A stretch of DNA of 64,000 nt from Patescibacteria group bacterium. GTDB taxonomy: Bacteria > Patescibacteriota > Patescibacteriia > UM-FILTER-42-10. The stretch spans positions 29,204 to 93,203 of the forward strand of contig JBAYKW010000005.1 in NCBI GenBank assembly GCA_041664365.1, given 5' to 3'. Shown one piece after another: positions 2,293 to 45,596 of this stretch (positions are counted from its first letter, which is position 1; every line of letters begins with the position of its first letter). The notes under the pieces are model-generated. The model searched no databases. It was not told the origin of the DNA and saw nothing but the letters and a program-made list of their open reading frames with translations. The position numbers were made by a program, and so were the translations under genes.

Positions 2293-2541
2293 ATGTACGA
2301 AACGATCAATGAAACAATTGAAGTTCTGGTTCGTTTTGGCAAGCAGACTATTGCCCCCGCTGTTTTCCGCTGGCGGAATAAAATATACAAGATCGAAAAA
2401 GTTAACCTAGCACACAGTGGTAAGGTGGGAGATGAAAAATGGTACTACTTCTCCGTTTCTGATGATGCCAATTATTATAAACTTGCCTTTAACAGCACAA
2501 CTTTGAAATGGTATTTGGATGAATTATATATAGAGGGCTAA
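2293..2541 (+). CDS. Hypothetical 82-aa protein, paralog of 2041..2289
   Basis: Starts 3 nt after the stop of the preceding ORF. Same length and clear sequence similarity (MYETINETIEV... versus MFKTINETIKV...; YYKLAFNSTTLKWYL versus LYKLSFDTRSLEWEL). Confidence 0.55.
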   Translation: MYETINETIEVLVRFGKQTIAPAVFRWRNKIYKIEKVNLAHSGKVGDEKWYYFSVSDDANYYKLAFNSTTLKWYLDELYIEG

Positions 2542-2631: not shown

Positions 2632-3849
2632 ATGGAAAAAATAATATTTCATATTGATATGGATTCGTATTTCGCCACCTGCGAACAACAAGCGAATCCT
2701 TTTTTGCGTGGCAAGCCGATCGCCGTTTCCGGCCATCCGGATTCGCGTACCGTAATTTCCGCCGCATCCAAGGAAGCCAAGAAACTGGGTGTAAAATCCG
2801 CTATGCCTATTTTTGAAGCCAGGCGCATTTGTCCAGACATCATTTTTGTCCCCGGGGATTTTGAAAAATATGTGCATATCACTAAAACTATCATCAGAAT
2901 ATTTCTTTCCTTTACCGACCAAGTGGAAGTAACCAGCATTGATGAGGCATTCATGGACGTTACTCCTATTGCCAAAAGATACGGCGGAGCAATCCACGTC
3001 GCCAACAAAATAAAAGCAGAATTAAAACAGCAAGTTGGTGACTGGATGACCTGCTCGATCGGTATCGCACCGAATAAGCTGATGGCTAAACTGGCTTCAG
3101 GATTGAGGAAGCCCGACGGCATCATGTTTGTACCACAAAAAGATATCCTTTCTGTTTTAAAAACTATTGAACTTACAGACTTGTGCGGGCTGGGCCGTCA
3201 GACAGAAAAGCATTTAAACAAAATTGGAATTAAAAATCTGGCTGAACTAAAGCAATATCCCTTAATCAAACTAATCAGGGAATTCGGCCAAACGGGCTTG
3301 CAACTACATAATATGAGCTGGGGCAGGGGTTCTGACTATGTCCCCTCTTATTATGAAAGTTACCAGGAGAAATCAATGGGGCATCAGATTACCCTACCGA
3401 AAAATACCCTAGATCTGGAATATTTGAATAACACACTTTTGAAGCTTTGTGAGAAAACCGGACGCAGAATGCGAGAAGCTAAACTATCCGGTCGGGTGGT
3501 CAGCGTGTTTATCAGATACAACAATTTTGAAGGCATCTCCCGACAAAAGGCGGTAAAGATTAATGTTGACGACGGGTATCAGATTTTTGAGCTAGCCAGA
3601 AATATTTTAAAATCATTTTCATTCAAATATCCCGTGCGCTTGATTGGGGTCAGTGTTGCCAAGCTTTCCTATTCTAATCAATACGCGCTTCCTTTCGCAG
3701 ACACAAAAAAGAAACAAGCAATCCTGCAGGCGATGGATGCCGTAAATAATAAGCATGGAGAATTTACTATTCAGCGCGCTTGCCTGTTAAAAGATCTCGG
3801 GTTAAAGAGAGATTTGCCGGCACACGGGCTGATGCGTAAATACCTATAG
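2632..3849 (+). CDS. dinB: DNA polymerase IV (Y-family translesion polymerase)
   Basis: N-terminus IFHIDMDSYFATCE matches the DinB/UmuC catalytic Asp motif. A polymerase-associated little-finger region follows. Length 405 aa. Confidence 0.9.
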   Translation: MEKIIFHIDMDSYFATCEQQANPFLRGKPIAVSGHPDSRTVISAASKEAKKLGVKSAMPIFEARRICPDIIFVPGDFEKYVHITKTIIRIFLSFTDQVEVTSIDEAFMDVTPIAKRYGGAIHVANKIKAELKQQVGDWMTCSIGIAPNKLMAKLASGLRKPDGIMFVPQKDILSVLKTIELTDLCGLGRQTEKHLNKIGIKNLAELKQYPLIKLIREFGQTGLQLHNMSWGRGSDYVPSYYESYQEKSMGHQITLPKNTLDLEYLNNTLLKLCEKTGRRMREAKLSGRVVSVFIRYNNFEGISRQKAVKINVDDGYQIFELARNILKSFSFKYPVRLIGVSVAKLSYSNQYALPFADTKKKQAILQAMDAVNNKHGEFTIQRACLLKDLGLKRDLPAHGLMRKYL

Positions 3850-3870
3850 GCGAGGATGCGCATCCTCGCC
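3849..3870 (+). terminator. Perfect 22-bp palindrome immediately after the dinB stop
   Basis: GGCGAGGATGCGCATCCTCGCC. No clear U-tract follows. Confidence 0.4.
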
Positions 3871-3881
3871 TATAGACGGGT

Positions 3882-3943
3882 TTGACCCCGTTAGAGTCAA
3901 AAACTCTAACGGGGTTGACAAATCCACTGTTTTATTATAAGCT
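3882..3943 (+). repeat. Hairpin-plus-promoter repeat element, copy 1 (TTGACCCCGTTAGAG-loop-CTCTAACGGGGTTGACA, 17-nt spacer, TAAGCT)
   Basis: A 13-bp perfect stem, ACCCCGTTAGAGT / ACTCTAACGGGGT. The TTGACA at the 3' end of the stem sits 17 nt from TAAGCT. Related copies occur at 7139-7200 and 45558-45596. Confidence 0.5.
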
Positions 3944-4017
3944 GTGGAGCTTATTTGTGTGTCAATTCGGACATACAAAAAGGCAGGACTGCGTGCAACA
4001 GAAGGAGAGGAACATTA

Positions 4018-4782
4018 ATGTCCGCAACCAGAAAACCCAGCGAGGTCTACGATGGGATTTCCGTCCAGAAGGCTGCCGACTTCTTCGTCGGCAACAAGAA
4101 CCGCTGGCGACTCTACATCGGCAACCCGCCGGTCCTGATCGAAGATCTGGATTGGGAGTGTATCTCCCCGTTCGGCTCCGTCCGCAACGTCGTCGTCGTG
4201 GACGAGAACGGCCTGCCGATCTTCGACCGTCCGGAATACCGCGAGGCGCCGAACGTCAACGTCGTGGTCTGGGGACGTGATCCCGACGGCACCGTCAAGC
4301 TCGCTGTGATCACACAGCCCCGCCCGCACGCGGATCACCCGTGGCTCAAACCCGGTACACCCTGCGATCCGGTCGTGTTCTGCCAGATCGTCATGGGCTT
4401 CACGAGGAAGCTGTTCGGCGAGGACATCTTCGAGCAGTATGAGTCCGCAAAGGATGCGGCCAAGCGGGAAACCGCCGAGGAATCCGGCGCCAAGGTGATC
4501 CGGAATATCGAAGCTCCCAGCGCTCCCTGGCACAACCCCAACCCGACATTCGTCGCGACGTGGAGCAACCTGCTCTTCATCGAGGTCGATCTCGAAGCGC
4601 TGGAGGCGATCAAATCCACGCGCAACGAGCCGATCTACAACGCTGAGTTCGTAGACGTACCTACGCTTCGTAAGCGCGTTGCGGACGGCGTGGGTTCCAA
4701 TGGAGAGTTTTACCGTATGTGTACGGCCAACTCTGCGTGGTTCATTTTCGAGTGCTGCCACCCCGAGCTGTTCAAAGCATAG
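4018..4782 (+). CDS. Nudix-family hydrolase (high-GC gene)
   Basis: Start ATG at 4018 preceded by GAAGGAGAGG. Nudix-box-like RETAEESGA inside GEDIFEQYESAKDAAKRETAEESGAKV. About 60% GC, in contrast to the flanking DNA. Confidence 0.55.
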   Translation: MSATRKPSEVYDGISVQKAADFFVGNKNRWRLYIGNPPVLIEDLDWECISPFGSVRNVVVVDENGLPIFDRPEYREAPNVNVVVWGRDPDGTVKLAVITQPRPHADHPWLKPGTPCDPVVFCQIVMGFTRKLFGEDIFEQYESAKDAAKRETAEESGAKVIRNIEAPSAPWHNPNPTFVATWSNLLFIEVDLEALEAIKSTRNEPIYNAEFVDVPTLRKRVADGVGSNGEFYRMCTANSAWFIFECCHPELFKA

Positions 4783-4836
4783 CGGAACCCTGTTCCGCCC
4801 ATCCCCTGGATTCACACCCCTCGGGATTTTTTTTAT
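4782..4836 (+). terminator. Tandem hairpins with a T8 tract after the Nudix gene
   Basis: GCGGAACcctGTTCCGC, then CCCCTCGGG followed by TTTTTTTT. Confidence 0.5.
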
Positions 4837-4971
4837 TTACAAATCGATGATATCATCGAGGGTATTGACTTTTTTTTAAATCTATTGTACGATTTTTGCT
4901 CCCGTTCTTTCCCTAAACCCTGCGACCATCGTTCAGCGACCCTGAGCACGGTCAACTCATGGAGGAATCTT

Positions 4972-5319
4972 ATGACCGTCCAGCTGTACCTCACTCACTG
5001 CTCGATCGCGCTCGTCGCGCTTGCGCTCACCACTCTGTTCCAGGTCGGGCTTCTGAAGTGGGCTCGACACAACTTCGACTTCTTCTTCATGGTGAAGAAG
5101 ACACACGTGCGCAACTTCCTGGTTCTCAGGGTCTTCCAGCTCATTCTGCTGGCTCTGATCGCATGGGCGGTCCGGTCATTTCTGATCAAGGATTTTCTGA
5201 GCTCTGCGCTTCGCCCGCAGGTCATCCTGATCCACATCGGCTTCTGGCTGGTGATTCCCTATCTCCTCTACTTCGCCAACTACCGGTGGGAATTCCGGAA
5301 CAAGAACTTCTGTCGCTGA
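4972..5319 (+). CDS. Hypothetical small membrane protein (high-GC gene)
   Basis: ATG at 4972 preceded by GGAGG. 115 aa with 3-4 hydrophobic helices. Confidence 0.4.
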   Translation: MTVQLYLTHCSIALVALALTTLFQVGLLKWARHNFDFFFMVKKTHVRNFLVLRVFQLILLALIAWAVRSFLIKDFLSSALRPQVILIHIGFWLVIPYLLYFANYRWEFRNKNFCR

Positions 5320-5543
5320 AGCGACAGTCGCTCCCCTCAAGTCCAACAACAAGTATTACTTCGTTCGCGGACTTTTTTTATTACACAGGTGTTGAATATT
5401 ATGTGCTAATTATTGACAAAACTAGTCTGTTTTTGTTAAGGTATGAGACTATTTCTTCGCACATTGACTTTAGCGACATGGCGGTTTTGAGGCCAATACC
5501 GCTGTGTCATCATGGCTATGTTCAGTAGGGTAAAGGAGACCCA

Positions 5544-7019
5544 ATGAAAAAGCCTGCGTTTCTCCAGTACAGGTTCGGGCCGACCTTCTGGTCTGCCAAC
5601 GTCATGGAACTACTCGAACGGATGGGATGGTATGCCCTGTTCTCCATCATCATCCTCTTCCTCACCAACAGCAAGAAGGAAGGGGCTCTTGGTCTGACGA
5701 ATGAACAGGCAGGTACGATTCTGGGTATCGTGCCGTTCTTCCTCTACCTCGTGCCACTAGTCATGGGCACGATCGGCGAGAAGATCGGATACAAGCGCAT
5801 GTTGCTGGCATCGTTCGCGGTACTGGCCACGGGATACTACCTGTGCAGTCTGGCGACCGGATTCTGGACGTTCTTCTGGTTCTTCATGCTCGTCGCCCTG
5901 GGCGCCGGCATGTTCAAGCCGATGATTTCGGCTACGATCGGTCAGACGACCAGTGACAGCAACGAGAAGCGATCCGTCGGCTACGGCATCTTCTATGCCG
6001 TGATCAACGTCGGCGGATTCCTCGGGCCGGTCATCGCCGGTACGTTCCGACCGAGGTGCGATACCTCGGGGAATGTGATCAGCGGCAACTGGGATACGCT
6101 GTTCTACATCAACACCTGCTACATGGTGGCGATGTTTCTCTTCACGCTGTTCTTCTTCAAGGAGCCAGCGCGCAAGGGAACGGATCCCCTCGGCAAAAAG
6201 CTCCGCGAGATGGTCACGGACCTCCGCGACCCGAAGCTGAGCATTCTGCTCCTGATCCTCGTCGGGTACTGGACGAACTACGTACAGTTCTTCAACACGA
6301 TGGCCCTCTGGATCACGGAGTGGGTGGATACCAGTGCATTGGCGTCGCTGCCCTTCATCCCGGATGCCTGGGTGTCGGCTGGCCAGCTCAAGCCGGAGTA
6401 CTTGATCAACCTTAACGGGCTGACCATCATCTTGCTAGCTGTCTGGCTGACGAACAAGACTTCACCCTTCCCGATCCTGAAGACCATGAACACGGCGATC
6501 CTCATCCTCTGCCTTGCGGTGGCTGGTCTCACGTTCACGACTCCATTGGTCACGGGCGCGCTGGCACTCTGGCTGCTCATGACTCTGATCATCGTGTTCT
6601 CCATGGCGGAGATTTGCGTGAATCCCAAGAGCAACGAGCTCATGGCGAAGATCGCGCCGCCCGCGAAAGTGGCCACGTACCAGGGGTACATGTTCCTGTC
6701 GGTCGCCGGAGGATTCTTACTAGGAGGCAAGCTCGTCGGCTTGTACGGCCACTTCGCCGGAAAGACGGAGATGTACCGTAATGAGCTAACGAGACTTGCA
6801 AGCAACGTGCCCGACATCAAGGACCTCAACATCACCCAGCTGGGCATCGAGCTCCAGAAGCTCAACGTGGACCTTACGCAGTTCGATCAGCAGCTCTGGA
6901 CGACTCACAAGCCCTATCTCTACTGGTTGATCTGCGCGGCGATCGGCGTCATCTCCGTTGTCCTACTCGCTATTTACCGTCGGGCCGTTCCGATGCTCGA
7001 GAAAACCAAACGTACCTGA
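5544..7019 (+). CDS. Proton-dependent oligopeptide transporter (POT/PTR2 family, MFS)
   Basis: ELLERMGWYAL matches the POT ExxERFxYYG motif. GIFYAVINVGGFLGP matches the second PTR2 signature. Twelve or more predicted TM helices. Preceded by AAAGGAGA. Confidence 0.75.
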   Translation: MKKPAFLQYRFGPTFWSANVMELLERMGWYALFSIIILFLTNSKKEGALGLTNEQAGTILGIVPFFLYLVPLVMGTIGEKIGYKRMLLASFAVLATGYYLCSLATGFWTFFWFFMLVALGAGMFKPMISATIGQTTSDSNEKRSVGYGIFYAVINVGGFLGPVIAGTFRPRCDTSGNVISGNWDTLFYINTCYMVAMFLFTLFFFKEPARKGTDPLGKKLREMVTDLRDPKLSILLLILVGYWTNYVQFFNTMALWITEWVDTSALASLPFIPDAWVSAGQLKPEYLINLNGLTIILLAVWLTNKTSPFPILKTMNTAILILCLAVAGLTFTTPLVTGALALWLLMTLIIVFSMAEICVNPKSNELMAKIAPPAKVATYQGYMFLSVAGGFLLGGKLVGLYGHFAGKTEMYRNELTRLASNVPDIKDLNITQLGIELQKLNVDLTQFDQQLWTTHKPYLYWLICAAIGVISVVLLAIYRRAVPMLEKTKRT

Positions 7020-7082
7020 TTTGAACGAAGGAAGCCAGTACAACTGGCACATGGTGTCGGCCTCACACCATACTCCTTCCAC

Positions 7083-7118
7083 CCTTACACAACCGCGGCA
7101 TGTGTAAGGGATTTTTTT
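7083..7118 (+). terminator. Rho-independent terminator after the POT transporter gene
   Basis: CCTTACACA-accgcggca-TGTGTAAGG followed by T7. Confidence 0.7.
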
Positions 7119-7138: not shown

Positions 7139-7200
7139 TTGACCCTGTTAGAGTCTTTGACTATAGCAGGATTGACAAAATTAATTAATTTCACTAAGCT
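7139..7200 (+). repeat. Hairpin-plus-promoter repeat element, degenerate copy 3
   Basis: TTGACCCTGTTAGAGTC...GATTGACAAAAT, then a 17-nt spacer, then TAAGCTTATTT. Same architecture and near-identical ends as copy 1. Confidence 0.4.
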
Positions 7201-7268: not shown

Positions 7269-7619
7269 ATGCCTCTTTATATCACGCTGATCCTGCACAC
7301 AATCATCGGCGGGGTGACTCTAGTCACCCTGATCTACTGGAAGGCGGTACCCAGCCTCCTTAGCCTCTTCAGGGAGAACATCAACTTTTCGTGGCCAGGC
7401 TTCGGCATCTACGCTTCCCTTTTTCTGATAGAAAGAGCAGCGCAGGCAACCATCAACTACGCGACGCAGTTCGTACTGCACATCTGGATCGGACTGCCGT
7501 ACTTCCACCAGTTGCCCGCACCGTGGTGCTGGCTGATGCCGCTCTCGTTCTTTCTCACCCTGCCTCTTTACGGCTGGGTCAGATTCTACCGTTTCACATG
7601 GCATCCGCGCCCTACCTAA
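7269..7619 (+). CDS. Hypothetical small membrane protein
   Basis: 116 aa and hydrophobic. Followed by the CCCTGCAGGG-T7 bidirectional terminator at about 7635-7660. Confidence 0.4.
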   Translation: MPLYITLILHTIIGGVTLVTLIYWKAVPSLLSLFRENINFSWPGFGIYASLFLIERAAQATINYATQFVLHIWIGLPYFHQLPAPWCWLMPLSFFLTLPLYGWVRFYRFTWHPRPT

Positions 7620-11997: not shown

Positions 11998-14886
11998 CTA
12001 CTTCAGAAGAAGCATCTTGCGCGTAATCGACCGCCCCTCCGCTTCCAGGCGGTAGAAATACGTGCCAGAGGCAACTCGTTGCCCGGAGTCGTCCGTGCCA
12101 TTCCAGACGATCTGGTGCTGACCGGAAACAACCGTTCCGTCGACAAGCGTTGCAACCAGTCCGCCACGGACGTTGAAAACCTTCAGAGAGACATGGTCTT
12201 CGCGCGTCGTGGCAAAGCGGATCGCGGTCTGTGGATTGAACGGGTTCGGGAAGTTCGTTGCCAGTGAAGTCTGGTTCGGAACTTCGTCCCCAACTCCGAC
12301 CGGAACCATGACCGGACCAAGTCTGGTCAGCGGATCCCCGATCTTCATCATGGTGTTCAGTTGCCTGATCACCCACGGCCGGTTGGCGTACAGTACCGCC
12401 ATCTCTTCTTCGGCGAGCGCAATGCTCTCGAAGATTGGCCGCATCGGATCCTCAAGAATCTTGGCCGTGACGTGGTAGCCGATAACCTTGTTCGAGGAAA
12501 GCAGCGAACCACAGCTCGGCCCGTAGAATCCCACCGCACCGGCTTCATGGAACATCATGTCTTCCACCACTGGTGTGTGGTAGTAGGCTGCGTCATCCGT
12601 CGGAGCGATAGCAGCAGTACCACAGGTCGCGCCGATGAAAAACGGATGATGATTCATGAACGGCCAAACCAGGTCCATGCTCCACACGTAGTCGCCAAGC
12701 TCGCGCTTGGAGTACATGTTGCCGGGATAGTGCGGGCCGGACTGGCTTGCGAACATGATGTTGAGGTTGGTGTGTCCGCCCATGTTCCCGTTCCATTGAT
12801 CTGCACAGATCGAGTTGCGCAGTTCGGGGTTCCGGTACACGGATTCCTTCACTTCGGAAGTCCAGTTCCCATGCGATTGGAGCAGGGTACGGACAGTGTC
12901 CGCAGAAGCTGCGGCAACCGCACCGTCTCCAGGAGCTATGTGATCCATATCGCCGACAAACAACCCGACTCCGGACGAAGTCCAAGGAGTCCAGTAATCA
13001 GTCGACTCCTGTGCCACCAGCGAAGCCGCAGCAATCTGCAACAGCTCGGTAACCGCAAGGCGCGTTACCACCGTTCCAGGCAGCTCGTATGGCTGATCAG
13101 TGCGGTAGTAAGGCCACCACCATGCAAGATTCCGCCCCCGAGGGAGGTCATCCCGCACGGTAAAGCCAGGAATTACCACATGATCCAGTTGTGGCTGGTA
13201 GCGGTACAGCATCTGCAGCCGGATCGAAGCCCAAGGCCCAGTCCAGTACTCAGACCACCGCGTACCAAGGAAGTAGTGGTAGTCGTTGTCATCTGCACAA
13301 ATGAAGTGGTACCGGGCTCCCTCTGCCGTATGGAGTGCGATGCGCGACTGCAAGTACGCAATCTGCGCGTCTTCCTCCTCCGGCGTCTGCGGATACCCGG
13401 GAACAACATCCACCAGAACAGTGTAGCCGAACAGGCGACGGTAAGCTGCGTATTGTTCCACAGCGGCCGCGAATGGCGCTACTGTGTAGCAAACCAGCGT
13501 TTCCCCGTCACCGATGTTCATCGGAAGTACCGGTACGATCTCCCCACGGTCACGCGCCGCCTGCTGGTCTGCGATCGCCTGCTCGAAGTAATCGAGTGTG
13601 CGAGGCAGTGCCTGCATTGCGGGACGAGCCAGTGGAACTGTCGGTTGCGCGTAGCCGTGGACGATGATGTTCGGCGGAATGGCGTCTCCGTTGTTATTCT
13701 CCTCCCGTTCGCAGAGACGGAACCATTCGTGACCACTGGCAAGCGCATCGCTGATATCCAGCTGGTACTCCGTGAAACCGGGCCCCTGCTCGATACCGAC
13801 GATTTCCCACGGACCATCCGTGGTAGCCGCCGACTCGACGTAGTATGCTTCAGTCCTATATTCGGATCCAACCAGCCACTTGGCGGTCTGGCCTTCAACC
13901 GAAAAATGGACGTCCGCAGCGCCGTTGGTGCCGACGAAGAATCCCCACATATCAGTCAAATGGACAATGGGAATTCCGTTGCCACTTGTGAAGTTCCCGG
14001 TAACCCAACCGGTGCCATTACCAGTAGCACAGAGTCTCGCACGGTAGGTGTGATCATCTGCCCAGGAACCTGAGCAAACTTGCACGAGCCCATCACCCGT
14101 GGGAGTTCCTGTCATGGCGCCCGTGAAGGTCCATTCAACATCAAGTCCTTCTGCAGGCACGATCAGTCCGAACTCAGGAGATTCTACGACTTCCGGTGCC
14201 AAAATCGTCGCACCTTCACCAGCTACCACAATTGAGCCGTCTCGGGAACTTGTGACAGTTGAACCACTGCCCATCGATTCCCAAAAAGTCTGTGCGTAGT
14301 TGGCGTTAGATGCGGCGAATCCGCAGAATACCCTCCGGCTTCCCCAGGAGCTTTCCCAGGTACTGGAACCACATGCCCAGTTGAAGACGAAGGTGTTGTT
14401 CGAAGTGAACTTGCTACTGATTGCTGTGCTTTTCAAGGCAATACAATAGCTTTCGGCGGTCGTGACTCTCTCAATACTGGCACTTGTCCAGCCATGAGCA
14501 AGATAGAAATCCCAGTTGTTGTCACGAACCGCCATGCTGTTCCGGTCGTACGGTTCAACGCTGATCGCACCATAGGTCCAGCCGTCGACTCCACTACCAT
14601 GGCCGTGCGTCTGGATCCACCAGACTCCATAGCTGTTGTCAAGCAGGTAGTAGAAGTCGTCCATGCCGAAGGAAGGCGCCGTGGTTCCCGGGCTAAGATG
14701 GGCCGCTTCAGTAACAACATAACCCTTGCTGGTCAATGCCGTTACATAGGCCACGCCATCATCCGTACCCCAGGTGTCCTCGTAGAATTGAGCGAGAACC
14801 CCGGTGTTTGTACCCGGAGTATCCGGAGATCCGTACCCCACGCTTGCAGCGAGGAGCAAGATCATGGTGAGCAAGAATCGCTTCAT
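11998..14886 (-). CDS. Large secreted caspase-fold (C25/gingipain-like) peptidase with a T9SS-type C-terminal sorting domain (high-GC gene)
   Basis: Signal peptide. THGHGSGVDGW and FNWACGSS form a candidate His/Cys dyad. The C-terminus FPNPFNPQTAIRF...SGTYFYRLEA...RKMLLLK is a Por-secretion-tail-like domain. The start is preceded by GGGAGGAG. About 62% GC. Confidence 0.6.
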   Translation of the reverse strand: MKRFLLTMILLLAASVGYGSPDTPGTNTGVLAQFYEDTWGTDDGVAYVTALTSKGYVVTEAAHLSPGTTAPSFGMDDFYYLLDNSYGVWWIQTHGHGSGVDGWTYGAISVEPYDRNSMAVRDNNWDFYLAHGWTSASIERVTTAESYCIALKSTAISSKFTSNNTFVFNWACGSSTWESSWGSRRVFCGFAASNANYAQTFWESMGSGSTVTSSRDGSIVVAGEGATILAPEVVESPEFGLIVPAEGLDVEWTFTGAMTGTPTGDGLVQVCSGSWADDHTYRARLCATGNGTGWVTGNFTSGNGIPIVHLTDMWGFFVGTNGAADVHFSVEGQTAKWLVGSEYRTEAYYVESAATTDGPWEIVGIEQGPGFTEYQLDISDALASGHEWFRLCEREENNNGDAIPPNIIVHGYAQPTVPLARPAMQALPRTLDYFEQAIADQQAARDRGEIVPVLPMNIGDGETLVCYTVAPFAAAVEQYAAYRRLFGYTVLVDVVPGYPQTPEEEDAQIAYLQSRIALHTAEGARYHFICADDNDYHYFLGTRWSEYWTGPWASIRLQMLYRYQPQLDHVVIPGFTVRDDLPRGRNLAWWWPYYRTDQPYELPGTVVTRLAVTELLQIAAASLVAQESTDYWTPWTSSGVGLFVGDMDHIAPGDGAVAAASADTVRTLLQSHGNWTSEVKESVYRNPELRNSICADQWNGNMGGHTNLNIMFASQSGPHYPGNMYSKRELGDYVWSMDLVWPFMNHHPFFIGATCGTAAIAPTDDAAYYHTPVVEDMMFHEAGAVGFYGPSCGSLLSSNKVIGYHVTAKILEDPMRPIFESIALAEEEMAVLYANRPWVIRQLNTMMKIGDPLTRLGPVMVPVGVGDEVPNQTSLATNFPNPFNPQTAIRFATTREDHVSLKVFNVRGGLVATLVDGTVVSGQHQIVWNGTDDSGQRVASGTYFYRLEAEGRSITRKMLLLK

Positions 14887-14889
14887 GAC

Positions 14890-15588
14890 TTACTCCTCCC
14901 GCGGATTGGGGATGGCCATCGGTCGTTCGAGACTACGAACAGCATCCTCGTGCAACATCCCGCCGTTCCAACTGAATTGCTGGGCAGCGGAAATCTCGAG
15001 ACGAGCCTTGTTCTGCTGCTGCGGATCAATCGGACTGGGCGGAATTGCCTGCCGGACTGACGACGTCACAATGATGATACAACCCTTCTCGATGTACATC
15101 TTCAGGATGCTGAGTTGCGACTCCAGAATCTCGCGCTTGGTCGCGCGATGCGCCGTGTCAACAACGAGGTAGACCTGGGTATCCGGCTCGTCAGTCCAGA
15201 GGTACCCGAAGTTGTTGTCCGACATCTGGAACGCTTTGGCGATCTGTTGATCAGCGTTCATCATCGCTACGAGCTGAGGCGTAATCTCGGCATTCGAAGT
15301 TCCGAGACCCTGCAGTTCGATCTGCTTGTCAACGACACGATTGATCAGTTCCATTTTGTGGATCTGACCAGAGGTAGCAGTGACCACGTCCTTCGGCTTG
15401 TCCGAGATTTCGGGCCACACCTGCACTCCTTTCAGAGTGATGATCTGGCCGTCCGTGGACAGATCGTTGAGAGTGACCACACCCAGGTAGTTGCCATAGG
15501 CGTAAGCCTCGGCGACCGGCTGATCCTGTGCGCTGGCGCTGACCATGCTCGCAAGCACGACCAGCAGAGTGAGAACGAAGTACCGCAT
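14890..15588 (-). CDS. Hypothetical secreted protein (high-GC gene), co-directional with and adjacent to the peptidase
   Basis: Start at 15588 (MRYFVLTLLVVLASMVSASAQ signal peptide) preceded by GGGAGAG. The stop abuts the next gene's start. Confidence 0.5.
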   Translation of the reverse strand: MRYFVLTLLVVLASMVSASAQDQPVAEAYAYGNYLGVVTLNDLSTDGQIITLKGVQVWPEISDKPKDVVTATSGQIHKMELINRVVDKQIELQGLGTSNAEITPQLVAMMNADQQIAKAFQMSDNNFGYLWTDEPDTQVYLVVDTAHRATKREILESQLSILKMYIEKGCIIIVTSSVRQAIPPSPIDPQQQNKARLEISAAQQFSWNGGMLHEDAVRSLERPMAIPNPREE

Positions 15589-16068
15589 GGTACTCTCCCT
15601 TCCGGCGTGAAACGCCTTGTGGAAACATGTAGCAAGCAGAATGCTCACTACGCCGTTACTTATGCTTCTTCTAAGTTGTCAATATGCGTGGATACACCGA
15701 ATGCTTTCGATGCTCCGGTCAATTATCCAAACTAACTGACCGCAGAATCGAACCTATAAAAAAACTACCCTAAAATAGGTAGCCGGCAAATAAATACAAA
15801 AAATTGAACTTATTTTTGCTAGAATGTCGGTTACGCTACTGGCTCAAAGCTGTCCTGTCAACCGCACATATTAATGTTTGGGACCAAGCGTCCAATTACA
15901 GACAACTCTTCATCGCCACATTCCTCCTTTATTCAGTTGTGATTTTTTGTTTTTATTTTGGTTTGGTAGCTTAGTATATTGTATAAAAAATGTCAAGTCT
16001 CTGCAAATGGAATAAAAAAATAGGGGCGGAATAGCTTCCAAAAAACCCCTATGTTGCGCAACTTAGCG

Positions 16069-16500
16069 CTAAGAACTGGACGAAGTGTGTGCCCACAAAA
16101 TCCCGTTGATCGCGTCACGGACCGTGATCAGAGTGAAGGGCTTGGGCAGATATGCTACCGCACCGAAGCGTTCTTGGAAAGCCTTGCTCAGCGCGGCGGC
16201 TGACTTCTGACTGCCATTCTGACACATGATCACGAGTGGTGTGTGAACGGTGAGTCCGCAACGCTTCAGCTCGTGTGCAAGCCACCCCCCACCCCGAAAC
16301 TGCGGGTTGTCTTCCGGAGCAAAATACTCCGCGAGAATGATGTCGGGACCTTTTCCGTCCTCTTCGATCCAAGCCGTGACGCTCTTCAGTGCAAGCGTAG
16401 CATCCGAACTGCTACGGACATCGTGCCCTTCACACTCCAGGACTTCCACGATGAATGCCTGAGTCTCGCCATTGTGGTCGAAAACGAAGACTTTGCTCAT
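16069..16500 (-). CDS. Standalone receiver (REC) domain protein with Glu at the phospho-acceptor position (high-GC gene)
   Basis: KPF motif (AYLPKPFT). PDIILAEYFAP, where the usual phospho-accepting Asp is Glu. AGGAGG ribosome-binding site. Confidence 0.55.
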   Translation of the reverse strand: MSKVFVFDHNGETQAFIVEVLECEGHDVRSSSDATLALKSVTAWIEEDGKGPDIILAEYFAPEDNPQFRGGGWLAHELKRCGLTVHTPLVIMCQNGSQKSAAALSKAFQERFGAVAYLPKPFTLITVRDAINGILWAHTSSSS

Positions 16501-16816
16501 CGAACCTTACCTCCTGTGCCGGTTTCGCTATTACCCTCATGGCAAACCGCGCTCTTAGGTTAAAGAGCTAAGCGACCAATAACGGTTTCCAATCCTCGGG
16601 CTGGACACACTACTGTGTCCTCACAGAACACTATGGGACATACTTAATGTGCATACAAAAAATCGTCTCTATATGAGACGACGCAACCAAAACACCCCCT
16701 ATTGTGTCGGTTACGTCACTGACTCCGGGCTTCCCTTGACGTCCAGATTGGGATCACCTTTCATAGTCTCACATGAAATCACTATTCGATTTCTTCCGGG
16801 GATATTAGCATGTTCT

Positions 16817-17923
16817 TTACTGCTTGTCAATACCGACAGCATGATAATCAAAATTCAACCGATCCAAAATAACACTCCCCTCCTCACTACTGGCAAATCT
16901 TGGCTGAGCATAGTCTTCAATAATTACCGGAAAGAATTCAAGCCCGCTGATTCCCTCTTTAGAAAAAGTAATTTCCGCTATCATTCCTTCCCTGGTTTCT
17001 TGAGACCACATCTGGTCAAAAACAAAATTTCCCAGGCTGTAAATAATATATCCTTTCTGATATTTTTCCATTGTCTGCACGACGTGCGGATGGTGACCAA
17101 TCACCAGATCGGCTCCGGATTCAATAGCGGCATGTGCAAAATCTTTTTGGTGCTGATCGGGCGTAAACTCATACTCATTACCATCATGCATAGATACAAT
17201 TACAAAATCGGCAGTTTCGGATGCACCAGAAACATCCTGTTTCATTTTATCAAAATCCATAAAGGCAATTGTTGGTTCCTGCTCTTCAGAATCATAATCC
17301 ATTACAGGACTGCTTGCGTAACTATATGCCAGAAATGCAAACGATATTCCATTAATCTCCTTCGTATAAGTCTGAAATGCATCCTTAACACTTTTCCCCG
17401 CCCCCATATAACCTATTCCGGATTCATCTAAATATTTAAAGGTATCGGATAATCCTTCTTTACCAAAATTCAGAGAATGATTATTGGCGAGTGTAACAAG
17501 ATCAATGCCGGCAAATTGTAATCCTTCGACAGATTCCGGATCGGAGCGAAAAACCATTTCGTTCGTATTGATTTTCCTCCCTAGTGTAATTGGAGATTCC
17601 AGATTACCAAAAGTAATATCAGCACTTTTTAATAATTCTGCTGTTTTGAGAAAAGGATAATTAAAATCACTATATTTCTGCATCTTCGTATCTACGTCTC
17701 TGGAAAGCATAATATCCCCTACTGCCATTATCGTTACAACCGGCTCGTTCTTTTCAATGTCAACAACTGGTTGATTACTATTTATCGTAATATTTGAATT
17801 GTCATGTGCATTTGAAATGTTTCTTGTCGGCTCAATAATGCTTCCGCGGAGAATAAAAAAACCGATTCCAAGAGCTACTGCTATTTCCAGTATAATATAG
17901 TACTTTTTATTGAATATTTTCAT
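16817..17923 (-). CDS. CapA/PgsA-family metallophosphatase (poly-gamma-glutamate capsule synthesis-like)
   Basis: N-terminal TM helix. VGDIMLSR...ADITFGNLESPI...IVSMHDGNEY...VIGHHPHVVQ. Confidence 0.75.
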   Translation of the reverse strand: MKIFNKKYYIILEIAVALGIGFFILRGSIIEPTRNISNAHDNSNITINSNQPVVDIEKNEPVVTIMAVGDIMLSRDVDTKMQKYSDFNYPFLKTAELLKSADITFGNLESPITLGRKINTNEMVFRSDPESVEGLQFAGIDLVTLANNHSLNFGKEGLSDTFKYLDESGIGYMGAGKSVKDAFQTYTKEINGISFAFLAYSYASSPVMDYDSEEQEPTIAFMDFDKMKQDVSGASETADFVIVSMHDGNEYEFTPDQHQKDFAHAAIESGADLVIGHHPHVVQTMEKYQKGYIIYSLGNFVFDQMWSQETREGMIAEITFSKEGISGLEFFPVIIEDYAQPRFASSEEGSVILDRLNFDYHAVGIDKQ

Positions 17924-19846: not shown

Positions 19847-20986
19847 TTATAATTCTTCAACACGCACACGAATAACTCCATCCATATATAAACTGGCAAT
19901 TGTACCAAAAGCCTTGCTAGTTAAATCAATAATTCTACCGGCTACAAACGGTCCTGTGGATACCACTGTAACATCCACCCATTTACCATTGGCTAAATTG
20001 GTAACTCTTAAAATAGTATCATATGGATAATCATTAGACGCTGCCCCGTTTGGATATTTACTGCTTTGATACCAGCTGGCGTATCCCGTTTCCATATAGT
20101 TACTATTTCTCAACACCACTACTTTTGCGTATTTGAGATGGATAAAGGCTCTTACCTCATCACCACCCGGGGATGTTTTTGAAGGTAAGGGAATCCAGGC
20201 TCCTTTATTACCGTCATAGTAATACATTTCCTTTTTATGGTCATCAGGTTCTGTTAATCGCATGTTTAAAATAACCGGCTTGGCAAACACAATGGGTTTG
20301 GCTGTTTTTAATTCAAAAGAATAGATATCACTTGCCTGCTCGAGACCGTCAGGAAACTGAGCATTTTCTTGAGAGTCTATTTTAAACACAATGGTAGCCG
20401 GCTGGTCAATCGTATTTGAATTAACTCCAACTTTGAAATTTGAGTCCTCATCATTTGCGACTGTATAACCCTTTTCTAAAGTTGCCCTGTCCAATCGAAC
20501 TCTGTAAGCTCTTTTTTCTAGAACAATCAGTTTTGCCGACACGGCAGTGATTTGTCCTTTGATTTTGGTATCAGAAGATTTTGAATCTATTTTCTGCCAA
20601 GAATTTTTTTCCTCATTATAATAATATAAATGCTTTGGTGTTAAATTTTCCGATTCATAATTAACAGCAACATTGACCGGATATTGAAGATCTGAGGTTT
20701 GAACACCGGAGAATGAATACTGATAAACATTACTTACCGCAGTTGTATCCTTCGGCAAAGCCGGGAAACTTTCCAATTCATTCAAATTGGCAGTCAGGGC
20801 ACCTTCATACAAACCCGCAACAACTCCGACACTGAACTGGGAATCAGCAAAATTAACGGTATATCCTTTCGCTACTGTATCAGCATCCAGGTATAAACTT
20901 GTGTCAGCAGCCAGCGTTTCATTGGAAATAAAAAAAAGGCTTGCTAACGCGATCCCGAATATGATCTTGTTTTTGGCTCTTGTCAT
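19847..20986 (-). CDS. RlpA-like septal lytic transglycosylase (C-terminal double-psi beta-barrel) with two N-terminal copies of an uncharacterised KGYTV domain
   Basis: C-terminus GYASWYQSS...YDTILRVTNLANGKWVDVTVVSTGPFVAGRIIDLTSKAF...VRVEE is the RlpA DPBB. The N-terminus has two roughly 130-aa repeats, each starting at (A/E)KGYTV. Confidence 0.7.
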   Translation of the reverse strand: MTRAKNKIIFGIALASLFFISNETLAADTSLYLDADTVAKGYTVNFADSQFSVGVVAGLYEGALTANLNELESFPALPKDTTAVSNVYQYSFSGVQTSDLQYPVNVAVNYESENLTPKHLYYYNEEKNSWQKIDSKSSDTKIKGQITAVSAKLIVLEKRAYRVRLDRATLEKGYTVANDEDSNFKVGVNSNTIDQPATIVFKIDSQENAQFPDGLEQASDIYSFELKTAKPIVFAKPVILNMRLTEPDDHKKEMYYYDGNKGAWIPLPSKTSPGGDEVRAFIHLKYAKVVVLRNSNYMETGYASWYQSSKYPNGAASNDYPYDTILRVTNLANGKWVDVTVVSTGPFVAGRIIDLTSKAFGTIASLYMDGVIRVRVEEL

Positions 20987-28598: not shown

Positions 28599-29384
28599 CT
28601 ATGCCGGTTTTTTTATTAAAAACTGGTAAATTTTTTCCAAAAGCGTATCAGTCACTTCATCCATCAAAGGATCATGATAGGAATCCTTGAGCCAATAAAG
28701 CTCTTTTTCCTTTGATCCCAGCATATTGTAAATCAGTTCAGCGCTCTCAGGTGGTATAACCACATCATCCTGAGAATGAATAATTAAAGTAGGTACTAGC
28801 ACATGCGGTAGTTCGTTTTTCGTGAAATTATTGATAAAATAGATGAAACTCGCATAGCTATCAAGCGGAATCCGGTCGTATGTCCGCTTCATAAATTCGG
28901 TATCTGAACTCATATCCTTAACCCATTCTTTCTTGTAATACTTTTTGAATCTTTTGACATACGGCACAACATAGCGGTTGAGACGGGCCTTTTTTAACAA
29001 AATAGGAGTGCCGATTGTAACAATCTTATCAATCGTATCGGGATAACACCTGGTCAGGTTAAAAGCCAGATTCCCGCCAAAGGAAAGTCCGACAATTGAA
29101 ATGTGTTTGTATTTTTCTCTTACCTGATTAAAAGCCACACGTACTGATTCCTGCCAATCGCGATAATCGGTCTGCGCTAAATTTTCAACATCTGTGCCGT
29201 GACCGGCAAGCCTGACACCATAGGCGTCAATTCCCCTGTCAGCCAGAAAACTACCCAATATCCGCATGCTGAAAGGGTTGCCTGTGAATCCATGTATTAA
29301 CAAAACGGCAGAGTCTCCTCCACCGTTATATTTGAATGCTTTACCGGATTCAATAACTTGATCCTCGTTTTCTACAATTTTCAT
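28599..29384 (-). CDS. Alpha/beta hydrolase (esterase/lysophospholipase-like)
   Basis: LLIHGFTGN. Nucleophile elbow GLSFGG. C-terminal Asp/His region (SQDDVVIPPES...YHD). Confidence 0.75.
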   Translation of the reverse strand: MKIVENEDQVIESGKAFKYNGGGDSAVLLIHGFTGNPFSMRILGSFLADRGIDAYGVRLAGHGTDVENLAQTDYRDWQESVRVAFNQVREKYKHISIVGLSFGGNLAFNLTRCYPDTIDKIVTIGTPILLKKARLNRYVVPYVKRFKKYYKKEWVKDMSSDTEFMKRTYDRIPLDSYASFIYFINNFTKNELPHVLVPTLIIHSQDDVVIPPESAELIYNMLGSKEKELYWLKDSYHDPLMDEVTDTLLEKIYQFLIKKPA

Positions 29385-35300: not shown

Positions 35301-36076
35301 ACGAACATAGTTTATAACATAATATCATGAATTATTCAATTAATAAAGCCACTCCGTATTATTTTTTAGGTTAGGGTTCAGTCCTCCCGAAAACCCTTAA
35401 TTTTGTAATCATTACTTCATCTTATCTCGCACGTTTTCCTGTTCATTTAGTCTAGATTCCGGAATGACACAAGGCTATAAACATGTCTTTCGAGCGAAGC
35501 CGAGAAATTTTTAGACCTCTCCGCTTCTACTTAAGAATCCATTATTAATAAAGTAAAAGTCATAACAAAAATCCGTTCAGTGTTGAACGGACTTATGTTT
35601 CGAAGCAATATTCTGCTGAAATGGGTCATGTAGGTAATACGAGCTTAAGTTTGAAGTATAGGTCTTTAGCAAAACCTATGAGGAGAGAGTTTTTCATTCT
35701 TGAGTTCGATCTATATGTTTAATCCCAAGTTCAGCAGAATAATGCCTCCAAATTATTGCATAATTTATAAGAACGGAATTGGAGCGAATATGTAAAGAGC
35801 AATTAAAATTTTTCGCTCCAAATCCAGACTCACAAACATTTTTAGGGAGAAAGCTGAAGACGAATTGCAGGCCTTCAGTATTGCCAAATCCGCCTCCAAT
35901 TTTCTCCCTGAAATTTGCGTGCTCAGAAATCTGGAGGAGAACCTGTCCCGGATTTGTGATCTCGCTTGGAGATCTACCCGGGACGTGGAACATTCCGTTC
36001 AGGTAATTTCTAGCGTGAGCCAGATATTTCCTGGGATACATTCCTTTGTTCGCCCCTCCATATTTCTAAGCACTTT

Positions 36077-36720
36077 TTGTTAATGTCCCCTTATTCAGCA
36101 AACATTGACATAAGCCAATATTCGCTGGAGAAGGGGTACGAGAGAGCAGTAACGGGGGCTACTGCTCTCTCGCCCGTCGCTGAGCGCCTACTAGGCGCTG
36201 CGACGAATCGCGTGATCGATCGGCATGAGCTGCCGCTTCTTGGGATGGAACTCCCGCCGAATCGGGGGCTTGCTCGCCACCTTGCGGTGCGAACAGCTAC
36301 CACTCGACTTCGGGACATGCACCGGGATGAAGATGTGACCGACGTTACCGCCGGTGTCGTCATCACGGGAAAGCCCGCACGAGACCACCGTGTTGCGGAG
36401 GTCAACGGGTTCGAGCGTGGGCACGACGGTGGCAGCGGGATGATATCCCTCCACCAGCGCTTCTTCCCGAGCCTCGTGGTCCAGGATGCGCGTGAACACT
36501 TCGTGATGGGATGGTTCCTCCCAGCGTGAAGTGTGGTCACCGCCGAACCGGTTCTTGATCCGCTTGACCTTGCCACCGTTGTCCTGCTTGAAGACCTTCT
36601 TCATGATCGCCTGCTCCTTCTTGCGATTGAACGTTATGGTGCGACCGATACGATGCGATTCTATTGTTGTCAGGGCAGAATTGGAGGTGAGTTTCCTGTC
36701 TTGCGACAAGTTACTATTTG
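36077..36720. other. 0.64-kb high-GC block of uncertain coding status inside a 1.9-kb non-coding region
   Basis: About 62% GC versus about 38% in the flanks. The longest frame (36191..36709, minus strand, 172 aa, ...IDHAIRRSA*) has no recognisable fold. All six frames are open, as expected for GC-rich DNA. Confidence 0.3.
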
Positions 36721-37195
36721 CATAAGTTTATGACCTATAAATAGATCTACTTATGCGGGAAACATTCCATCAGGATGCTTCTAGCCGAGGCCAGTAGCGT
36801 CCTGGGATAAGTTTCGTACTCTCTCCTCCAAATCTGCCCTGATAATGAATTTAATGTGCAATCCCTGTGATATTAGTTACAAGGGATTTGGAGGAAAGAG
36901 AGACCTTAGGTTATATTTTTAAAACGGTCTCCTGTCAGCAGGTTTTCAGATCTATGTCTGATCACCCACTCCTCCAAATCTCTTGTTCCAATATGGACAA
37001 AAAAATGGACGGCATTATTCGTTGAAGAGAGTTCTTCCACTAAAACCACCCATAAGTATTGCTAAAGTTATTTCTGATTTCTCTCTCCTCAATTGTCAAA
37101 GAATTTGATTTAACTAACCAGTATATACCCAAATTAAAAATCTGTCAAGACCCGAAGGGCTTAACAGACTATATTTTGGCTAATTACAGATAAAT

Positions 37196-45037: not shown

Positions 45038-45528
45038 CCGATATCCAAGCCTATAAGCCGAATTTTGTATTCCGCATAGCGGAACGATGATTATCTATCT
45101 AGCCATGTACCGAAACGCGGCGCGTCTGGTACGTGGTCAAGCGATCAACCCGCCCCCGTTGCATTTATTGCTAAATACCCGGGGACCTATTTAATCTTGC
45201 ACCGGATAGGGTTTTTCATCCCCTTCTGTTGCCAAAAGAGGAAAAGGATTCTTAGGCCCTTACTTTTCACCCTTACCCCACCAATTACGGGGCGGTTTTG
45301 TCTCTGTGACACTATCCCTAGGACTTCCGGACATTAAAAAGTCTATAGAACTCTTCAATCCCCTTTATTCCCGGCCCGAGTTACGAGCTATCCACTTCTC
45401 CTCACACCAATATTTTGAACAGAAAAAATCAATTTATTCATAACATTGGTGTGAGGAGGGTGTTCGGACTTTCCTCCCAGTACATATGCTTTTGCAATGT
45501 TCCGGGCAATCATCCAGCTTAGATAACG
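45038..45528 (-). ncRNA. rnpB: RNase P RNA, bacterial type A (rnpB)
   Basis: Minus-strand transcript contains GGGAGGAAAGUCCGAAC (the P4 5' half) and ACAGAGACAAAACCGCCCCGUAAUUGGUGGGGUAAGGGUGAAA, close to the E. coli M1 segment ...CAAACCGCC...GGUAAGGGUGAAA. It also contains AUACAAAAUUCGGCUUAUAGG, matching ACAGAACCCGGCUUAUCGG (the P4 3' half). A long P3 hairpin is present. P1 pairs UAUCUAAGCU with GGCUUGGAUA. Confidence 0.8.
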
Positions 45529-45557
45529 GCAATGTATATCATACTACAAAACGCCAG

Positions 45558-45596
45558 ATTGTCAACCCCATTAGAGAACTTTTCTAACGGGGTCAA
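45558..45596 (-). repeat. Hairpin-plus-promoter repeat element, copy 2 (between rnhA and rnpB)
   Basis: The minus strand reads TTGACCCCGTTAGA-aaagttc-TCTAATGGGGTTGACAAT. The TTGACA lies 16 nt upstream of TATGAT, in front of the rnpB 5' end. Confidence 0.5.

Follow-up and report, generated by a model that had tools for sequence, protein, structure and literature searches.

The window, that is, the whole 64,000-nucleotide (nt) stretch of contig JBAYKW010000005.1 considered here (assembly GCA_041664365.1 of a Patescibacteria group bacterium, positions 29,204 to 93,203 of the forward strand), contains three copies of a short palindrome, located downstream of dinB, of a POT/MFS transporter gene, and of rnhA. 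The palindromes have the form CCCCGTTAGA...TCTAACGGGG, are 27-29 nt long, perfect or near-perfect, and are situated between direct TTGA repeats. An earlier sequence-only reading had placed a hairpin-plus-promoter module at these three positions, each copy ending in TTGACA with a -10-like hexamer 16-17 nt further on; this is confirmed, and so are, by Pfam, the neighbours dinB, POT/MFS and RNase H. The gene at 4018-4782, labelled 'Nudix' in that reading, has no Pfam match. The features of the three sites are as follows.

3844-3875, plus strand: resident terminator-like hairpin by copy 1, overlapping and following the dinB stop codon (3847-3849), outside the element and kept in the element-free relatives L242, L243 and L246.
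3882-3885, plus strand: left target-site duplication TTGA of copy 1; a single TTGA, inside TTGACA, is found here in L242, L243 and L246.
3886-3914: palindrome of copy 1, CCCCGTTAGAGTCAAAAACTCTAACGGGG, 29 nt, with a 12-13 bp stem, absent at the orthologous site of the same three relatives.
3915-3920, plus strand: right TTGA duplicate of copy 1 and resident CA, together a re-formed -35 box TTGACA.
3938-3943, plus strand: resident -10-like TAAGCT, 17 nt past the -35 box, serving the 254-aa gene that starts at 4018; TAAGCT is also seen in the element-free L242.
7082-7118, plus strand: canonical intrinsic terminator belonging to the POT/MFS gene and resident at the site, with a T run after the stem CCCTTACACA/TGTGTAAGGG, outside the element and with an equivalent in the element-free L242.
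7139-7142, plus strand: left target-site duplication TTGA of copy 2.
7143-7171: decaying palindrome of copy 2, CCCTGTTAGAGTCTTTGACTATAGCAGGA, 29 nt, 11 predicted pairs with one internal mismatch, -12.8 kcal/mol, absent in L242, L243 and L246.
7172-7177, plus strand: right TTGA duplicate of copy 2 and CA, the re-formed -35 box TTGACA.
7195-7200, plus strand: resident -10-like TAAGCT, 17 nt past the -35 box, serving a small membrane protein gene (7269-7619); TACGCT in an empty-site relative.
45593-45596, minus strand: left target-site duplication TTGA of copy 3.
45592-45566, minus-strand reading: palindrome of copy 3, CCCCGTTAGAAAAGTTCTCTAATGGGG, 27 nt with one G-T pair, absent in L234 and L238/L239.
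45560-45565, minus strand: right TTGA duplicate of copy 3 and CA, the re-formed -35 box of the rnpB promoter.
45538-45543, minus strand: resident -10 box TATGAT of the rnpB promoter, with a 16-nt spacer and an 11/12 consensus match, conserved in L234 and L238.
45038-45525, minus strand: RNase P RNA gene (Rfam RF00010, 163.5 bits), transcribed from the promoter that hosts copy 3.

The pattern TTGAC-N24-32-TTGACA occurs three times in the window versus 0.35 expected, and three or more occurrences were seen in 0 of 100 shuffles. Beyond the three, no further copies or solo arms were found in the 64 kb.

We scanned 185,579 species genomes with a query consisting only of the left arm and TTGACA, and obtained 95 stretches. 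The complementary right arm TCTAACGGGG, unspecified in the query, is present in 83 of 100 instances (window included), and the remaining 17 are about what chance would give (about 24 chance matches expected, by our own calculation). A scan of metagenomes relied on the right arm and TTGACA only; the free left flank is TTGAC in about 85% of at least 107 unique copies. As each large scan fixed one arm, mirror changes are unobservable in a comparison of G-T with A-C mismatches. Overall there are more than 200 copies, under record titles that are overwhelmingly those of Patescibacteria (Candidate Phyla Radiation, CPR). Besides the three copies in the window, there are five on the 15.9-kb contig behind L133 and at least nine in assembly CAZQTS01. 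Thus the motif comes in hundreds of copies and is not confined to three loci, and the sequence-only reading was right in treating it as a real repeated unit and not as a chance similarity. Assembly CAZQTS01 (L004, L005, L014, L016, L032, L035, L048, L060) is titled 'uncultured Gammaproteobacteria', and single copies occur in bins titled Nitrospirota, Elusimicrobia, Planctomycetota and others; these are likely mislabelled or contaminated bins.

No Rfam family was found at the element, either in the scan of the window at gathering thresholds or in an E-value scan of 3800-4050, which gave noise only. In the literature the 10-mers CCCCGTTAGA and TCTAACGGGG turn up only as unrelated primers and the like, and the papers searched yielded nothing on miniature inverted-repeat transposable elements (MITEs) in Patescibacteria, nor on a MITE combined with TTGACA. 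TIGR-Tas, which came up there, is unrelated.

The stem has an invariant 11-bp base, ACCCCGTTAGA/TCTAACGGGGT, followed by 2-5 variable yet complementary apical pairs and a loop mostly of 3-4 nt (range 3-10); the energies of the family members that were folded are between -16 and -25 kcal/mol. The short form, 27-36 nt, contains little beyond the two ends and the 3-4 nt loop. The same ends also bound elements of 59-132 nt, whose interiors are AT-rich, non-palindromic and unrelated to each other. The inverted-repeat ends CCCCGTTAGA(A/G)... match over 11-19 nt in the family and over 13-19 nt in these longer members. The element size is 27-132 nt, with no coding capacity, and conservation is much stronger in the arms than in the flanks.

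Might these be ordinary terminator hairpins that share a common arm by chance? A 10-nt arm can recur by chance, and a scan of viral contigs with the palindrome alone yielded 21 hairpins whose 10-nt arms are the same, from genomes with 26-65% GC. In these background controls, however, the stem continues into the flanks, which lead into T tracts, as in ordinary terminators, and none of them has the TTGA/TTGACA flanks. In the CPR the flanks are direct repeats, the family numbers in the hundreds, and the filled and empty orthologous sites described below differ by exactly the palindrome and 4 nt, which refutes chance likeness. We regard this explanation as practically negligible.

The duplication was assessed in 41 copies not chosen by any search pattern, with the adjoining tetranucleotides as a control. 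The 4-nt flanks are identical in 18 of the 41 copies versus 0 of 41 in the control (binomial p = 8e-33). The duplicated tetranucleotides are TTCA/TGAA (6 copies), TTGA/TCAA (4), TTTA/TAAA (3), CTTG (2), TTAA, TATG and TGAG, roughly T-T-N-A. The terminal pair of the element is C-G with TTGA|C, TTAA|C, TATG|C and TGAA|C, and T-A with TTCA|T, where the last base is the one that follows the right duplicate. The T-A-ended subfamily, TCCCGTTAGA...TCTAACGGGA, invariably has TTCA as its flanking repeat and T as the next base (L089 3604-3705, L131 3148-3225, L158 1572-1687, L217 2646-2725), and the C-G subfamily usually has C after the duplicate. The orthologous copies L013 5090-5127 and L046 7921-7958, from two related genomes, have flanks of only about 75% identity but identical arms, with loops that are reverse complements (AAAT/ATTT); a second insertion into the same site, or an inversion by way of the arms, is suggested by this pattern.

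Several of these properties would also fit a single-strand hairpin element of the HUH/Y1 type, moving in the manner of IS200/IS605 or of repetitive extragenic palindromes (REPs) and their transposases (RAYTs). Such an element would insert 3' of TTGAC and carry its own 3' TTGAC, with no duplication by gap repair. The short form is indeed a near-perfect hairpin with a 3-4 nt loop, the reverse-complement loops of L013 and L046 point the same way, and the duplication usually takes in the fifth base (TTGAC, TTAAC, TATGC, TGAAC, TTCAT) with a co-varying terminal base, hinting at base-specific recognition of the flank. The target of ISDra2, TTGAT, may be counted here as well. On the other hand, the members of 59-132 nt have classical terminal inverted repeats around non-palindromic interiors, and the flanks are identical direct repeats of many sequences, as a staggered cut predicts, whereas IS200/IS605 elements and REPs duplicate nothing. 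Moreover, no Y1 transposase was seen, though only the open reading frames (ORFs) beside solo ends were listed and none was compared with a protein-family library. We consider this mechanism improbable.

The orthologous sites in relatives were reached through RnhA homologues at syntenic loci for copy 3 and through DinB homologues for copies 1 and 2. At the copy 3 site, L234 (RnhA 92% identical) and L238/L239 (74%) keep recJ-rnhA-rnpB and TTGACA-16-TATGAT, with no palindrome and a single TTGA. The junctions are ...GGAA-TTGA-(27 nt)-TTGACAAT in the window versus ...GGGAG-TTGACAAT in L234 and ...CCGGC-TTGACAAT in L238, with the same -10 box and rnpB. Two outgroups being empty at this site, the window therefore gained copy 3 by insertion.

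The copy 1 site in L242, L243 and L246 (DinB 93% identical in L242/L243) is ...ctataggggggaTTGACAaacc...TAAGCT, and the copy 2 site in the same relatives is ...cactggaTTGACAaaaac...TACGCT, both palindrome-free, while the resident terminators upstream of the two copies are both intact there. The more distant L244 is likewise empty after dinB. In L240, a 57-nt family member occupies the copy 1 site, and without 28 internal nucleotides it is identical to the window copy letter for letter. The short hairpin of copy 1 looks like the remnant of an internal deletion, in a direction that we infer.

The reverse case, a site empty in the window and filled elsewhere, is the following one.

16802-16830, minus strand: unoccupied target, a promoter with TTGACA (16830-16825), 17 nt and TAATAT (16807-16802); the orthologous site in L007/L194 is filled.

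In L007/L194 this site reads TTGA-(28 nt)-TTGACA and differs from the window by exactly the palindrome and 4 nt. Hence there are four orthologous sites with presence/absence polymorphism, each empty site having one copy of the tetranucleotide, and the filled and empty states recur in independent assemblies from JGI, ENA, NCBI and Logan. The L007 element (6058-6095, orthologous to window 16825-16830) overlaps the last PGA_cap codons as well as the -35 box, and its insertion turns the PGA_cap C-terminus ...AVGIDKQ-stop into ...AIGVDPVRENSLTGLTISKEHANLP-stop. L246, empty at window sites 1 and 2, has a degenerate copy of its own of about 55 nt at about 19870-19935, TTGA|CCCCGTTATAG...CTCTATTGGGG|TTGACA, preceding a gene for a DEAD-box helicase. 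Hence the family has been independently active in each lineage.

The TTGACA at the element is predicted to be a genuine -35 box, and on this point the earlier proposal is borne out by two statistics. Positions 18, 19 and 23 after the element-linked TTGACA are T, A and T in 52, 54 and 55 of 83 family members, respectively. Further, TAnnnT is present 16-18 nt downstream of 121 out of 169 element-linked TTGACA (72%) versus 117 out of 225 other intergenic ones (52%) and 87 out of 730 in ORFs (12%). The resident sites have the features of sigma-70-type promoters, that is, a TTGACA-like -35 box, a spacer of 16-18 nt and a TAnnnT -10 box. TAAGCT matches TATAAT at three of six positions, T1, A2 and T6, and the RNase P RNA starts 13 nt past the end of TATGAT. 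TAAGCT is found 17 nt past TTGACA at three promoters of the window, at 3938-3943, at 7195-7200 and after the TTGACA at 15992 (minus strand). The upstream TTGACC was considered as a second promoter and rejected, having no -10-like hexamer 16-18 nt downstream.

Copies 1 and 2 agree at only about 5 of the 17 spacer bases, and both spacer and -10 box vary between copies within one genome. The promoter is most readily seen as resident and outside the repeat, because the spacer and the -10 box differ among copies and relatives without the element keep the same promoter. TAAGCT, which had been taken for a part of the module, is not one: the conserved unit stops at TTGACA, and element-free relatives have TAAGCT or TACGCT at this position. 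Similarly, of the 'mobile promoter cassette' only the mobility holds; there is no promoter cargo, as the same -35 box, spacer and -10 box are present in relatives without the element at all three sites. Nor were promoters captured. The insertions went into pre-existing ones, because the relatives without the element have the same -35 box, spacer, -10 box and upstream terminators.

The suggestion that a single element acts as both terminator and promoter does not hold: the element carries neither, the stem is not followed by a T run, and the promoters and terminators are resident. An intrinsic terminator is excluded in particular by TTGACA(A) following the stem in place of a T run and by a terminator scan, in which none was called on the same strand at the three sites. 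The element also occurs between divergent genes in other genomes. An integron attC site, with cores resembling GTTRRR/YYYAAC, was rejected as well: the core order is reversed, the element is far shorter and a target duplication is present.

A broader functional explanation is that the palindrome is a selected regulatory module, kept as an insulator or terminator of read-through, as a supercoil-driven cruciform or as a binding site for a hairpin-binding or dimeric regulator, its mobility being secondary, as in the promoter-early stem-loops (PeSLs) of phages. Its location immediately upstream of the -35 box in most known copies and the stem energies of -20 to -25 kcal/mol would be natural for such a module, and so would arms that stay identical between lineages with only about 75% identity in the flanks. 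Compensatory changes are also seen in orthologous copies, C-G to T-A in L022/L079/L080 and CCAC..GTGG in L222, and PeSLs demonstrate that units of a stem-loop and an early promoter exist and matter (PMC2839356, PMC4122927). Nevertheless, the same -35 and -10 boxes drive the essential rnpB in relatives without the palindrome, and copies 1 and 2 have separate resident terminators upstream. An operator of a dimeric transcription factor can be rejected, as the half-site distance varies (3-10 loop bases and 2-5 apical pairs per arm), more than a rigid dimer bound to duplex DNA would allow, and the downstream genes form no coherent regulon: rplS, groES, secG, a xerC-like gene, rnpB and 74 singletons are a mixed housekeeping set. 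Finally, copy 2 is decaying, and unselected copies are situated at the non-promoter sites TTCA, TTTA and TATG. We rate a selected module slightly below even the single-strand hairpin element.

From the observed inverted ends, target duplication, presence or absence at four sites, longer members and the relation of the 57-nt element to copy 1, we favour the explanation that this is a MITE-like inverted-repeat element of Patescibacteria, mobilised in trans, that inserts at TTNA with a 4-nt stagger (probability about 0.8). Five of the six features of MITEs that we considered are found, namely, terminal inverted repeats, target duplication, a small non-coding unit, dispersed copies and presence/absence polymorphism. 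The family is undescribed and is unusual for MITEs in having units down to 27 nt and in sparing the promoter upon insertion.

The events at a -35 box might be as follows. A putative transposase supplied in trans would insert the element at T-T-N-A with a 4-nt staggered cut, and the repair of the gaps would duplicate the four target bases. At the target TTGA^CA, the right duplicate and the resident CA would rebuild TTGACA, while the left duplicate and the first C of the element would form the second 'TTGAC'. The rebuilt TTGACA would keep its register to the -10 box, so that the core promoter would stay intact and the insertion would be tolerated; the sole change for the gene would be that the DNA upstream of the -35 box is shifted by about 32 bp by a GC-rich palindrome. 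Copies would pile up in -35 boxes due to a preference for TTGAC(A) targets and to purifying selection in a genome that is about 90% coding. The movement may well be cut-and-paste by a DDE-type enzyme, maybe of the IS1380/piggyBac kind.

Some observations weigh against this explanation. First, 1.54 Mb of element-bearing DNA yielded no parent insertion sequence (IS), in the sense of a transposase gene lying between these ends and having a target duplication to match. In the same 1.54 Mb, pairs of ends 0.3-4 kb apart never have matching flanks; solo ends are mostly degenerate hairpins, with few long ORFs beside them and none of these bounded by a second end. We know of no parent IS of the palindrome family; its enzyme and chemistry we only infer, and a 27-nt element of two abutting ends may be unable to move by itself. 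Second, the interiors of the mid-size members are non-homologous, which is unusual for MITEs from a single IS. Third, the co-variation of the terminal pair of the element with the base after the right duplicate is left unexplained by a plain 4-bp duplication. Fourth, the choice between insertion and precise loss is settled by outgroups for copies 1 and 3 only. Finally, the preference for -35 boxes is partly due to ascertainment, as TTGACA was part of the query in both large scans, and the unselected copies have TTGA as just one target among several.

Still, some preference for TTGAC(A) beyond TTNA seems likely, because all three window copies and all four filled/empty pairs are at TTGACA promoters despite a supply of 776 TTGA sites in the window, along with 106 TTGAC and 30 TTGACA sites. 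A stronger version of the MITE-like insertion, to which we give only tentative credence, is that the family homes to the sigma-70 -35 hexamer itself, with the enzyme recognising TTGAC(A) or DNA held by sigma factor or RNA polymerase, that promoter insulation may have become a co-opted role of the palindromes throughout the CPR, and that the 27-nt form is the smallest transposable unit described. If true, homing to the -35 box with cutting and regeneration would provide the element with a 'safe haven' where genomes have hardly any DNA to spare.

In Patescibacteria, a hairpin followed by TTGACA is easily mis-annotated as a terminator, an operator, a structured RNA or a promoter cassette. Genomes that are usually held to be streamlined and repeat-poor contain active mobile DNA, and close relatives differ at every examined site. 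The filled and empty sites are strain markers ready for use. Persistence in a genome about 90% coding would be possible by landing where the element's own target duplication mends the damage, here the -35 box. The copies also flag experimentally unmapped promoters in uncultivated bacteria, those of rnpB, a riboswitch, rplS, groES and others. If the enzyme is of the IS1380/piggyBac kind, or is truly promoter-targeting, it would be of biochemical interest in its own right.

Downstream of the unoccupied promoter at 16802-16830 (minus strand), positions 16696-16780 of the same strand match the c-di-GMP-II riboswitch (RF01786) at 38.4 bits, below the gathering threshold of 53.5, with E = 3.9e-7. 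The riboswitch-like leader of about 150 nt is better conserved with L007 than the adjoining coding sequence, has a folding z-score of -2.8, and ends in a terminator with a T run at about 16655-16690, upstream of a 143-aa gene (16069-16500). The RNase P RNA at 45038-45525 (minus strand) is 488 nt long versus 367 positions in the class A model, and hence has sizeable insertions.

Blocks of 52-59% GC are present at 4000-7000, 12000-16500 and 36000-37000 in this genome of about 40% GC. Among the products of their genes are the 254-aa protein without a Pfam match, the POT/MFS transporter and a C25-peptidase-like protein of 962 aa that ends in a sorting tail for type IX secretion. The gene order of the block at 4-7 kb is the same in L240-L243 and in L246, and L242-L245 have genes matching FlgD_ig or C25 at their edge. 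As the gene order is kept in relatives, the GC mosaic is old and not a recent private acquisition. The suggested link between the palindromes and the high-GC blocks is coincidental, and a block moved as cargo bracketed by copies 1 and 2 is rejected: the block genes are syntenic in relatives with empty sites. Between lexA and dinB, two tandem paralogous 82-aa ORFs (2041-2289 and 2293-2541, plus strand) belong to no Pfam family, are present in all of L240-L246 and may be members of an SOS operon. In L244 this interval has an extra GIY-YIG ORF.

Among known systems, eukaryotic piggyBac and the bacterial IS1380 family, whose DDE/DDD transposases are related and whose duplications measure 4-5 bp, are a lead, based on the ends and the duplication. 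The end of piggyBac is CCCTAGAAAG; it resembles CCC-cgt-TAGAAAG of some copies here, maybe by chance. The ends here are CCCC or TCCC and the flank repeats TTGA, TTCA, TTTA, TTAA and TATG; TTNA flank repeats in most unselected copies and CC(C) ends are the features shared with the IS1380/piggyBac type. Unlike in piggyBac, the third target base is free, with G or C favoured over A. In the literature, the duplicated target of piggyBac is TTAA, rarely TAAA, TCAA or TATG, and its ends begin with CCC (PMC10813416); IS1247 of the IS1380 family is listed with direct repeats (DR) of 5 and inverted repeats (IR) of 16/13 (PMC3281130).

REPs, with their bacterial interspersed mosaic elements (BIMEs) and RAYTs, are likewise palindromes of about 30 nt that lie outside genes in many copies and are recognised through a hairpin. 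However, REPs have a 5' GTAG and no duplication, whereas here there are direct TTNA-type repeats and no GTAG. IS200/IS605 elements share the specific target of 4-5 nt, but have two different end hairpins and no duplication, in contrast to the true inverted ends and variable direct-repeat flanks of this family. The PeSLs of T4-like phages are stem-loops directly upstream of sigma-70-type promoters, repeated and tied to differences in gene content (PMC2839356, PMC4122927). The PeSL unit, though, includes the promoter and spreads by homologous recombination, whereas here the unit stops at the -35 box, the promoter is resident, and new copies come from insertion with duplication of four target bases. 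A PeSL-like composite cassette was rejected, the spacers and -10 boxes being unrelated between copies and the promoters existing without the element in relatives.

The mobile GC clusters of yeast mitochondria are GC-rich palindromes of 30-50 bp in an AT-rich compact genome, with a short duplicated target; they differ in sequence, host and target, and are not tied to promoters. The nearest textbook case is that of the Correia elements of Neisseria (Correia repeat enclosed elements, CREE), which are likewise small and encode nothing, end in inverted repeats, duplicate a short target, lie scattered between genes in many copies, show presence/absence polymorphism, can fold as hairpins, and are often found beside promoters. 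Correia elements are 100-155 bp long, with 26-bp repeats, a TA duplication and -35/-10-like boxes of their own. The family described here, in contrast, goes down to 27 nt, is flanked by T-T-N-A and brings no promoter box, the resident -35 box being rebuilt instead.

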